A stretch of 62,097 bases of DNA, counting the filler, from Dugesia japonica (Eukaryota), in NCBI GenBank assembly GCA_001938525.1. It is 5 parts of 5 records of this genome, joined end to end, with 100 filler letters (N's around TTAATTAATTAA, not from the genome) between each part and the next. Parts side by side here need not be neighbours in the genome. Positions count along the whole stretch, not along the records: positions 41,455 to 49,996 come from MQRL01124186.1; 4 more parts are not named here. One strand, written 5' to 3'. The notes below the pieces were generated by a model. That model saw nothing but the letters and a program-made list of their open reading frames with translations, did no database searches and had not been told where the DNA came from. The position numbers were made by a program, and so were the translations under genes. Position 1 is the stretch's first letter. Each line of letters begins with the position of its first letter. Below are positions 41,564-49,960 of the stretch, in pieces.

Positions 41564-42612
41564 ATGGAGCATGTAACACAGGCGCATCAACATTAACATA
41601 TAAAGTAGATCACCAAGATTGCAAGTTAGCACACTTAAAAGAAGCAGTGTTTGACGAATATCAAGGCCAACGTGCTATAACGCCTATCGATCAAGATCCA
41701 AAAGAGAGTAATTTAAAAGATAGGATAGATAATTTTAAAGAAACAATAAAATCAGGTCTGAGATCATAGGATCAACAATGGCACACCACGCCTACGGTGT
41801 CTATGTCCTCAGAAAAGGATGAGACTATCCGATTAATCAAAGGAAACTCTTTGTCTAAATGTGGACAAATAGTATATAAGACAAATTATAAAGGAATATT
41901 CGTATCGGAACATCGAATAAAACGGCCCAAGCCGCAGTGATGACCCAAGATATCAAACTGCACTTATATGCTAATAATAAAATGGAAAATTTATTTCACC
42001 GGATGCAAGATACTATTGGACGAATGTACCATGACCTCATACAAAACGATTGTACTTTAAATAAGGAAATTCTGAAGACAAAGTTAGCAATGGCAGTTAC
42101 AAATCCAGATAGTGTAACCCCGTTAATTCCTCTAGAAAAAGGACAATTTGGTCGGGTGGTAGGTGAATTAATGTACCTATACAAATGCAAGGCAGTAGAT
42201 GCAGAATTTTCATCTAACCCAAAGAATTGCTACAATGAGATAGAAATTATTCACAACAATGAGAAGCGTTATGTGCAACCCATCACGCGAATAATATCAC
42301 CATTGAGATATAAGCCAAACATCATAAATTGCTCTAATGTATTTGGACCACAATATAATGACGAATGGGTCATGGATAAGATTTCCACAACGAATGGCAG
42401 TAGGAGTCGAACGACGGAAATTCTCAATGTTACGATTAAATGGGGGAATGCAATTTACCCCAATTGATGTAAACAAAGGAGGAATCTATAGCAGAGAGGA
42501 TCTAGAAAAAGCAAGAGAATATATGTTGTTTCCAGTCCAAAGAATGCAGATCATGTCAAATATCGTACAATTAACCAGTGGAACTAATATAGACGGACGA
42601 GTAAATTACGAC
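41564..42612 (+). pseudogene. Chuvirus-like / gB-type (class III) envelope glycoprotein fragment
   Basis: Across one stop and two frameshifts: YGAC..G..TL.Y...DC...SKCGQIVYKTNY..IF...LHLYANNKM..L...IGRMYHDLIQNDCTLNKEILKT.LA.A...PD...KGQFGRVVGELMYLYKCKAVD...CYNEI.I.HNN...YVQPITRII...CS...P.Y..NGSW...GGIYSREDLEKAREYMLFPVQR. This follows the recalled chuviral-glycoprotein pattern (Y.N.K...LY.D...KC.L...PD...G....GE..Y..KC.PV...CY.ELPV...P.TRI...GIY..ED....R..I.FP..R). Confidence 0.85.
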
Positions 42613-42616
42613 TGGA

Positions 42617-45600
42617 TTGGACCTTTTACTGCGCATCTGTCCAGAAGGAATTTTAGACTTAAGAAAATTGACGATACGGGAGAATTGTGAGCACAAATAT
42701 ACCCCCGTAGGGTATCAGAAAACTAGGATAATAGCTAGACAAAACCGTTCAGAACAACGGGATCCACCAACATCGAATCAACAACCACGGCGAGGTAGAG
42801 GTGAGCAATCCTTGGAAAACTACCAATACCTCCACCATAATACAAGACGACTGGATCAGGTTCCAATAACGGGAACTAAAATGGAAAACCAAAAAACAAC
42901 GCATCTCTAACCATAAGGTTACAGACGTGGTAGGTGCAAGTCTCAGTGGCGAACCGGTATTGACTATCATGACTAACTTCAGTGGTAGACCTACAACTGC
43001 ATTATTAAATACTGGAGCAACCATTTCGTTGTTATAAATAGAAGAAATTGCAATAACGGAGTATAAAAATATATTACCCACTAATACTACGGCAGATGTG
43101 GCAAACGGAAGCAGTCTTAAAATCTTTGGAGAATTAGCCTGTGAAGTGGAATATCAGAATAACACGATTAAACACAAGATGATAATAGTAGAAATGGCTG
43201 GACAGTGCATTTTGGGTACGGACATTCTTCCAATTTTGATGAAGAACGGTATATTAAATTTCTCCACATTACAGTTGCAATCTTTGGAAAGTTATACTTA
43301 TGTTAAAGACCACGAAGTATTCACTACGGAAAAAATCTTGGTACCTAGTCGATGTCAGGTATACTGTGTAGTAAGCACCAAAAGTGCATACGAGGGAGAT
43401 TGTTATTTTGAACCATATGACGGATTTGCACAACAATATGAGTTACCTACAGCAGGAGGGATAACCACAGTCAATAAAAGCGGAGAAGTACCAGTCAGCT
43501 TAGTCAATTTTACCGAAAAGGATATCATGATCAAGCCAAATTCCAGAATAGCCACACTAACTCCCATTGAACCCGAAACCGAAGAGATAGAAAAAAGTAT
43601 CACAGAACCAGAAATAGTTAGAACATTCAAGGTATAAACGGAAACGCTATCAGATGATCAAAAACAGGCAATATTACGATTATTGGAAGAATTTAGAGAT
43701 ATCTTTGCATGGACTGATGAAGATTTGGGTATGTGCACCGCTATAATGCACACAATTTCCTTAACAGACGAAACCCCGAGTAAGCAGAAACCATATGCGA
43801 TATCGATGGAGAAAAAGGAATTTGCAAATAAAGAAACGGCTAAATTAGTGAAAATCGGCGTGATAGAGCCCAGTTGCTCACCATGCCAATCACCAGTGGT
43901 GTTAGTTGATAAAAAAGATGGGAAACAACGATTCTGCATTGATTATAGAAGATTAAATGCACAGACGAAAAAGGATAGATATCCGCTACCAGATATTAAC
44001 GAATTACTTCAACTATTGTGTAATGCTAAAATATTCACCACGTTGGATTTGCGAAGCGGTTATTGGCAGATAAAAATCAAACCAGAAGATAGAGAGAAAA
44101 AAGCCTTTTCTACAGGCAAGGACTTAAATCAGTTTATCCGTATGCCATTCGGACTTACTAATGCACCAGCATCGTTTCAACCAATGATGAATTATGTGAC
44201 TCACGTTATATCTCAGTGCATGGCTTATATTGACGATTTACTCATTTATTCGCTAACATTTGAAGGACATTTCAATGATCTGCGAAGTGTATTTATCCGA
44301 TTGCGGAAATGGAACTTAAAAGTCAAACCTACCAAATGCGAATGGGTAAAGAATAAAGTAACTTATTTGGGTCAACTAATATCGGATAAAGGAAAAGAAC
44401 CTGACCCTCGAAATACTGAGAAAATACGGAATTTAGCGCCACCAAATTGCGTACTTAAAATACAGGAATTCTTTGGTCTTGCAAACTACTATCGAAAATT
44501 CATTGAAGATTTCGCTAAAACTGCAAAACCTATGCAAGAATTGGTCAAACAAGACACTGCGTTCATATGGAGACCAGAACAACAACAGTCATTCGAAACG
44601 TTACGAGATAAATTATTAACCGCACCAATTTTAGTACACCCAGATTTCAAGAAACCATTTATATTAGCTACGGATGCTAGTGGATATGCAATGGGCGCTG
44701 TATTAAATCAACTAGACGAACAAGGAAGGGAAAGAGTGATTGCATACTTTAGCAAGAAATTTCAAGGAGCATAACTAAATTATTGCACTAAAGAACGAGA
44801 GATAATGGCTATAGTAAAAGCCACAAAGCATTTTCGATCACTCATACATGGTCACGAAGTGTTAATCTATACGGATCACTTACCAATTACTTTTATGGCT
44901 CAGAAACCTCTACGATGGAATAGAATGGCAAAGTGGCAGCTAGTAATGCAGGATTATTGTCCTCTGTTAAAATTTAAAACTGGCAAAGCCAACTCAAACG
45001 CGGATTGTTTGTCAAAAATCGGGGGACTAGAAACTACAGAAAATGCACCAGATGATACAGAAACATTTACATTACGGGAATTATTGGAGAAAAAACTAGG
45101 AATAGTATCTTCATTTTAGCGGAGGATCGGAATTTCGATGGATTAAAACATGCGCAAGCTGACGATGAAAAGATACAGATCATCACGAAATACATGAAGA
45201 ACTACAATTTAAAAACGTTAGAATGTAAACCTAAGATGAAGGAGCACCTTAAGAAGAATGGCGGTCGTTATGCATTTACCAAGGGTTGGTAACCATCCCA
45301 AGACGGCGATAATACCGTATTAGTTATCCCTAAAGCAAGACGAGATAAATTACTGGAACAATATCACAATGGTGTACTCGGTGGACACATGTCACATAAG
45401 AAAACCTAATCAAAATTAAGACAAAAATATTACTGGCCACATATGACTGAATCAGTAAAGGATTGGATTGCAAAATGCCAAATATGTGCTGCCAGAAGAG
45501 GAAGAGGCAAAAGAGTGAAAGCATTATTAAAACCAATCGCGGTACCAGCAGCTTCAATGGAAATTATTGCTATGGATGTAGTTGGACCGCTACCACCAAC

Positions 45601-49251: not shown

Positions 49252-49351
49252 ATAAGAGGAAATTACTTGTAAATAATGTAAATTAGGATCTAATAAATGT
49301 ATATAGATGTAATTACCAGTATTATATTAATAAAAACTCCTCATTTAGAAA

Positions 49352-49960
49352 ATGGGTCAGATCGAAAATGAAAACGACTATACAAGTACAATTGAAAATG
49401 AATCAATGGACTCACAAAGCGAAATAGAGAATTCTAGTATGACAAGTTATATATGTAGTAGTCCTGCGGAAAGCAACCTTTTAATAAATAATAACAACAT
49501 CTGTCCACAAGAAACAATCAATGAAATATGGAGAAATCATAATGAAGAAATGAAAGAATTGTGGGATAGTGCTAAAACCCAAACTCAATGGACTCAACAA
49601 AGACTCAAAGAGCTTGAGTACAATCAAAATCAATTATTACAAACCCTATTAAATACCAAACCCCAAGATTGGAGTGAACTGGAATAAATAAATAAAAATA
49701 AATTCCTACAACTACAAAATGAAAATCTATATGCAGAAACCCTTATGTGTCGGCAACAAATATTAGAAAATCGACGAATACTGGAAATCACAACAGAAAA
49801 CAAAATAATACAATGGAGTTGGTAGCCAAACAACATGACCTAATCTCTGATCAGTCAAAAGAACTCAAGTAACTTAAAATTTTAGTATACTCACAAAAAT
49901 GGGAAATCGAGACACTCAAAACCCGGAGTGTCCACACCCAAGTCAGTTTTGTCTGACATC
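49352..49960 (+). pseudogene. Coiled-coil ORF, unknown function (within the retroelement)
   Basis: MGQ start, S/E-rich N-terminus, and heptad-like WRNHNEEMKELWDSAKTQ...RLKELEYNQNQLLQTLL. It appears to continue past the stop at 49687. Confidence 0.4.

Follow-up and report, generated by a model that had tools for sequence, protein, structure and literature searches.

The window analysed here, a stretch of 62,097 nucleotides from the planarian Dugesia japonica (assembly GCA_001938525.1), includes a contig (MQRL01124186.1, positions 41455-49996, bordered on both sides by N-linker-N joins) that carries remains of a viral-type fusion glycoprotein, of a Gypsy pol and of a predicted second membrane protein. 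Do these parts belong to one retroelement, and what would a second membrane protein do beside a fusogen? The contig (8.5 kb) holds what is left of a Burro-like Ty3/gypsy element: a decayed copy, truncated at its 5' end, with an envelope gene (env) of the herpes simplex virus glycoprotein B (HSV gB)/chuvirus type placed before pol. We hold this identity, and the origin of the parts from a single polyprotein, with high confidence. The reading that appears probable as a whole is that of a dead gB-Gypsy copy, whose relatives encode one polyprotein ending in a predicted second membrane protein, a likely attachment or adhesion partner for the fusogen. The main coding parts are the following.

41564-42610, + strand: middle part of a class III (HSV gB/chuvirus-type) env, in three frame pieces, recognised by PF24664 and by a profile built from relatives.
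42611-42962, + strand: env-protease junction, not gag; about 117 codons, against at least 175 in relatives, which have the env tail here.
42963-43280, + strand: aspartic protease with a degenerate catalytic motif and one stop (gag-asp_proteas, E 1e-4; profile independent E value, iE, 9e-18).
43374-43565, + strand: dUTPase-like domain between protease and reverse transcriptase (PF00692, E 1.6e-5, above the cut-off).
43638-45020, + strand: reverse transcriptase (RT; YIDD at 44226) and RNase H, with a stop at 44772 (RVT_1, E 1e-31; RT_RNaseH_2, E 7e-24).
45100-46384, + strand: integrase, with an H2C2 zinc finger, the rve core and a GPY motif near 46283, interrupted by stops and frame changes (Pfam, colinear alignment).
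46384-47820, + strand: post-integrase part of the polyprotein, with a GRPRK motif, two CxxC motifs and three stops (frame bias).
47821-49251, + strand: predicted second type I membrane protein, in frame with the preceding part (hydropathy, frame bias, position and topology as in relatives).

Every coding part of the contig thus lies on the + strand, and the composition is uniformly A-rich (GC 33-40% and AT skew +0.15 to +0.35 over 42001-50000, the flanks being mostly at 15-30% GC with a skew near 0), as a first-pass annotation of this DNA had pointed out. Its chuvirus-like glycoprotein fragment is also borne out, with two Pfam matches to PF24664 (Monjiviricetes_fusion) at 41892-42467 (E 6e-26) and 42328-42690 (E 5e-7). 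The profile derived from relatives covers 41566-42610 in three frame pieces, corresponding to positions 203-539 of 687. The signal peptide, the N-terminal 200 or so residues and the membrane anchor (around positions 565-600 in relatives) are missing from this copy, and no hydrophobic segment was found upstream of the protease in any + frame of the contig. The anchor was likely lost by a deletion at the env-protease junction, which is also, in each of the two host-species contig sets, the env-pol bin with the lowest depth. Mapping of the deletion endpoint by alignment did no better than shuffled sequences, 271 of 500 shuffles equalling the score. For the env fragment, neither a word-index search restricted to longer proteins nor a sequence search of the PDB returned a match.

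The same junction had been taken for the end of a gag gene. A gag profile built from six relatives reaches at best an iE of 0.08 in the contig, and it is the env tail that occupies this position in relatives; gag would be expected upstream of the truncation, and it does occur in relatives P0125, P0137 and P0138. The Gypsy pol itself was correctly recognised. Scanning 15 open reading frames (ORFs) against Pfam, with X placed at stops to read the protease frame, gave the Gypsy-type order protease, RT, RNase H, then integrase, with the dUTPase-like domain in addition. The best relatives are 44-51% identical to this copy over RT-RNase H. The GPY/F motif, which this integrase possesses, is described as a hallmark of Gypsy and Retroviridae integrases (PMC12440569).

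Intact relatives show how these parts fit together. Searching 1.84 billion representatives with the env fragment yielded 411 matches; in 10 of the 15 that were scanned, protease and/or RT follow env in the same ORF, and in none does env lie behind the integrase. When the RT ORF was used to look for longer proteins (120 of 3679 matches listed), the matches listed included P0020, in which one ORF encodes both env and pol. The complete order gag-env-protease-RT-RNase H-integrase is found in one ORF of P0125 (3735 amino acids, aa). Single-ORF relatives range from 2226 to 4844 aa (further ones have 3003, 4099 and 4844 aa), some being intact ORFs with an anchored env ectodomain, and their polyproteins are colinear with the contig from 41569 to 46384. 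The best pol match is P0285 (4099 aa; 651 bits). In a tree of RT-RNase H, built from 55 of the 118 usable rows, this copy falls within a 17-row group that contains all 14 relatives with env and/or transmembrane (TM) segments (SH-aLRT 94); an RT phylogeny was among the checks that had been suggested. Given the single-ORF relatives, the colinearity and the tree grouping, env before pol is the family order and not an accident.

The polyprotein does not stop at the integrase. Where integrase homology ends, a single frame begins that runs over 46384-49248; its 955 codons contain 6 stops, the other two frames have 82 and 60, and shuffled sequences average 33-34 per half. The bias holds in each half: 3 stops in 479 codons (37 and 29 in the other frames) for 46384-47820, and 3 internal stops, at 48097, 48265 and 48874, in 476 codons (45 and 31; shuffle minimum 18) for 47821-49251. 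Because one low-stop frame follows the integrase, what had been listed as a Cys-rich ORF and as a membrane protein are together the C-terminal part of the polyprotein. The former is not a gene of its own and has 7 cysteines in 303 aa; it matches no Pfam family, its best Atlas score being 0.75. With the downstream ORFs belonging to a single polyprotein, there is no need for the separate accessory genes and spliced env RNAs that had been proposed.

The type I topology proposed for the second protein is kept as a prediction, although not for the product of a separate gene, since its sequence lies in the polyprotein frame. It comprises a short, N-terminal, signal-like hydrophobic core (47836-47865, residues 6-15), an ectodomain with three N-glycosylation sequons followed by a serine/threonine-rich stalk, one strong TM segment (49003-49089) and a tail with a PPxY motif (49153-49164). 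With X at the stops, a word-index search confined to proteins of 262-835 aa, in which fused forms outside this range are invisible, gave no match, and a PDB sequence search returned only hits with E above 1.

The corresponding pattern, in which a signal-like helix and, further on, a second hydrophobic one follow the integrase, was observed in 12 of 43 proteins with an integrase C-terminus; these represent 10 distinct elements and all belong to the env clade. Two further env-clade rows end at the integrase. Among the remaining 29 Gypsy pols, none has two post-integrase hydrophobic segments and one has a single segment. All eight intact env-plus-pol ORFs found to run past the integrase have the pattern (P0124, P0125, P0131, P0134, P0152, P0277, P0279 and P0285). 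P0285, which is outside the 43-row count, has three such segments and a weaker fourth by eye, that is two tandem cassettes (residues 2794-3984) with ectodomains of more than 500 aa and no Pfam family. A likeness of this ectodomain to that of the window copy, spotted by eye, was discarded (z under 1). P0134 was deposited under the name of a Flavobacteriaceae bin, probably by eukaryotic contamination.

Fold information could be obtained for several relatives. A shared FN3-like domain is recovered by leave-one-out profiles in eight of eight relatives, at 9-35 bits; an Atlas lead for a relative's ectodomain had pointed to FN3 (0.89). The P0276 model, computed from a four-sequence alignment, contains two beta-sandwiches arranged as a tandem FN3 fold (pLDDT about 56-84), matched to FN3 by Foldseek (E 3e-7) and by VIA (Z 9.2 with a root mean square deviation of 2.3 over 82 residues, and Z 8.9 with one of 3.2 over 81). 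A BFVD fold search retrieved only generic FN3 proteins. P0124 gives an Ig_3 match below the cut-off (E 9e-5). The ectodomain type hence varies by lineage: eight relatives share the FN3-like domain, one has an Ig-like domain, another carries two cassettes, and the domain of the window copy is unrelated. None of the ten relatives' tails checked has a PPxY motif. A complex prediction for a relative's gB ectodomain with its FN3 pair gave a score of 0.00 (monomers, alignments not used), which is neither support nor counter-evidence. P0015 has pol plus the FN3-like protein. Intact relatives thus carry gB-type env, Gypsy pol and a second membrane protein in one ORF, as had been supposed for this element type, and it is very probable that the second membrane protein is a genuine part of the family.

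Several observations weigh against this reading. The ectodomain of the window copy has no similarity to those of the relatives (-2.7 bits with the FN3-like profile; best z 1.3), so that position and topology alone tie its second membrane protein to theirs, and its single-sequence model is unusable (pLDDT 36). Signal peptides and TM segments were called from hydropathy windows, not with a specialised program; the final segments of P0124 and P0152, close to the C-terminus, may not be true anchors. A shared motif served to delimit the FN3-like slices, which favours the leave-one-out result. In the tree, the placement of the window copy is unstarred and comes with a long-branch warning, and the adjoining P0111 stops just after the integrase. 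No confirmed relative, and so no DNA context with a long terminal repeat (LTR) pair, came out of six locus scans, which covered viral, metagenome and genome collections. Finally, the joint that links env to pol in other genomic copies (see below) has only about 30 nucleotides on its short side.

How much of this is new? The pairing of fusogen and Gypsy pol had been put forward as a novelty, which it is not: gB-type env on Ty3/gypsy elements and env before pol are already published (PMC6431247, PMC13524379), and the second membrane protein is the new point. The nearest described system is Burro/GYPSM1, a planarian giant gypsy element (Arkhipova & Yushenova 2019, PMC6431247). Burro, 25-30 kb long, encodes one very large polyprotein (4,873-5,140 aa) with a mononegavirus-fusion-glycoprotein-like env in frame between gag and the protease of pol, an arrangement matched by the relatives, and shares with the window type a dUTPase-like domain between protease and RT. 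Its BCL2-like and ankyrin domains are paralleled in the relatives, and decayed fragments were reported in some species, as here. This likeness is drawn from the description of Burro, and the available Burro text has no post-integrase membrane protein. The relatives P0279, P0131, P0138 and P0137 bear several protease-like domains per polyprotein (up to seven in P0279), some after the integrase, as well as C2H2 fingers and ankyrin repeats; in P0132, a Bcl-2-like match (residues 9-70, E 1e-3, below the cut-off) lies just before env, as described for Burro.

According to Chary & Hayashi (2026, PMC13524379), gB-type env is widespread on Ty3/gypsy, and the GAG-ENV-POL order occurs in Nematoda, Bryozoa and Platyhelminthes. 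Their GAG-ENV-POL "ancient errantiviruses", for which cysteine-bridge classes (C1/C2/C3) and a POL tree are published, have a Gypsy pol, a gB-type env before it and multiple copies, as in the window type; they are intact, whereas the window copy is dead, with stops, frame changes and its env anchor gone. The words fibronectin, immunoglobulin, accessory and single ORF give no match in the main text of that paper. In the literature searched, no description of a post-integrase FN3/Ig membrane protein was found; Sacco 2022 and Grohme 2018, which may bear on novelty, and the figures lay outside this scope. A conserved but variable second membrane protein is thus likely to be an undescribed feature of a known group. 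Other systems are more distant. The BEL/Pao elements Anakin and Tas (PMC12440569, PMC9094657) have the same env family, but the window type differs by its Gypsy-type pol and env before pol. Troyka, defined as having neither env nor GPY/F (PMC12440569), does not fit a copy that has both. Rotifer elements that do not carry gB have small TM ORF3s (PMC5408684).

A scheme for such a polyprotein can be drawn from its topology and from what is generally known of viral polyprotein processing. Gag would stay in the cytosol, an internal signal would direct the gB ectodomain into the endoplasmic reticulum (ER), and the env anchor would return the chain to the cytosol for Pol. After the integrase, a second internal signal would send the second ectodomain into the ER, where its TM segment would stop transfer. 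Signal peptidase and the element's own protease or proteases (one to seven protease-like domains) would then free the parts at equal levels, neither splicing nor frameshifting being involved. Pol would be tied to the membrane at both ends until cut, and could be packaged in the particle with no Gag-Pol fusion. The cassette would thereby offer a simple account of Pol packaging when env separates Pol from Gag. The second protein might be displayed on particles or cells and attach to a surface molecule of the host, as gD or gH-gL do for herpes gB, its ectodomain having apparently been exchanged between lineages.

The comparison with herpesviruses (PMC13524379) is one of function, a class III fusogen working with a separate membrane protein; no homology to gD, gH or gL was seen, and the window type has one polyprotein, the partnership being drawn by analogy. 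A role in attachment is the most likely one and is advanced tentatively, at somewhat less than even chances. More speculative by a shade is the general proposal that GAG-ENV-POL giant gypsy elements may be two-glycoprotein invertebrate retroviruses, combining a class III fusogen with a receptor-binding protein made from a fixed post-integrase slot, whose ectodomain (FN3, Ig, other, sometimes doubled) would be exchanged between lineages, setting cell tropism and supplying gB-type env with the partner that it had seemed to lack. The entry mechanism of gB-only retroelements is stated to be unknown, and herpes gB needs partner glycoproteins (PMC13524379); the second membrane protein names a candidate partner, which makes the entry question testable. 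The window copy is a fossil, and its value lies in the family pattern to which it led.

The alternative that survives best, although rather unlikely, is that the second protein acts in the expressing cell, as a receptor decoy, in a superinfection block, or in adhesion between donor and target cells. FN3 and Ig are typical folds of adhesion and cytokine receptors in the host, and host-manipulating domains are known from Burro (BIR, BCL2, MATH; PMC6431247), the Bcl-2-like match and ankyrin repeats of the relatives pointing in the same direction. Synthesis together with env in the same membrane and the PPxY motif of the window copy fit a particle better, a weak argument given the PPxY-free tails of ten relatives. 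It is clearly less probable that only the topology matters, the post-integrase signal anchoring Pol at the budding membrane in place of a Gag-Pol fusion and the ectodomain being incidental cargo. The signal-like helix and its position are indeed kept in all eight polyproteins that pass the integrase, whereas the ectodomain is not; but a folded FN3-like domain persists in eight divergent relatives and one lineage has two full cassettes, and an anchor needs neither.

Further evidence on the integrity of the element comes from other copies in the host. Of the 10.0 million and 10.2 million records in the two host-species contig sets, 15,457 and 10,189 respectively match the stretch, mostly at less than 95% identity, and cover 30 of 30 bins; no single record spans the whole. 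In both sets, a joint links env to pol (42203 to 43241, with 30 nucleotides on the short side), and other joints bridge RT and the post-integrase frame, or the membrane gene and the last ORF. That the contig could be a chance composite of env and pol from different elements with a captured host gene is very improbable. The short, low-depth env-protease junction and the absence of a homolog for the window membrane protein would suit it, but order and strand are those of the single-ORF relatives, env and pol match the same polyproteins, composition is uniform, one frame extends from the integrase to the last TM segment with no intron-like breaks, and all bins are multi-copy.

RNA matching the stretch is rare. 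In two runs, of 13.6 million and 11.6 million reads, it accounts for 84 and 11 respectively, none at 99% identity or more: this is low-level RNA from other copies, none being attributable to the window copy. Least probable of all is a gag-pol with env and accessory genes as separate units on its flanks, expressed from spliced RNAs, and with an env possibly derived from BEL/Pao, for although the last ORF of the contig starts at an ATG of its own behind the stop of the polyprotein and may be separate, there is no gag, the relatives are single ORFs, no BEL/Pao-type Pfam domain (we take Peptidase_A17 and DUF1758/1759 to be such) appears among the 15 ORFs at E up to 1, and no joint was seen in the 95 matching RNA reads, which are too few to exclude splicing.

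The remaining features of the contig concern its two ends.

41496-41563, strand not assigned: host repeat of 68 nucleotides, unrelated to the element, with a 75% match to 55496-55570 of the window; it abuts the element fragment exactly and marks the 5' truncation point.
49352-49826, + strand: small acidic, coiled-coil-like ORF with its own ATG (starting MG) after the polyprotein stop and one internal stop (CdvA-like coiled coil, E 0.001-0.003, below the cut-off).
49962-49976, + strand: purine run of 15 nucleotides, a possible polypurine tract, 20 nucleotides before the contig end.

Since the repeat stops at 41563, and RNA reads diverge from the stretch there to continue into other sequence, the element fragment starts at 41564, within the middle part of env. 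The contig contains neither an LTR pair nor a long direct repeat; the final bin, at the contig end, has a raised depth in the host-species contig sets. The coiled-coil ORF annotated initially is retained as a small ORF, its coiled coil being weak. It is the only one that may be a separate ORF, is also covered by other copies in the host, and could represent an accessory gene situated towards the 3' end.

Elsewhere in the window, other decayed Gypsy pol fragments lie at 290-742 and 33688-33852. A run of + strand ORFs at 18126-23177, with a weak Ulp1/C48 protease match at 21541-22251 (E 0.009), may represent a decayed NeSL/R2-like non-LTR element, and an exon-like piece of DNA polymerase alpha/epsilon subunit B is present at 23551-24078 (E 6e-7).

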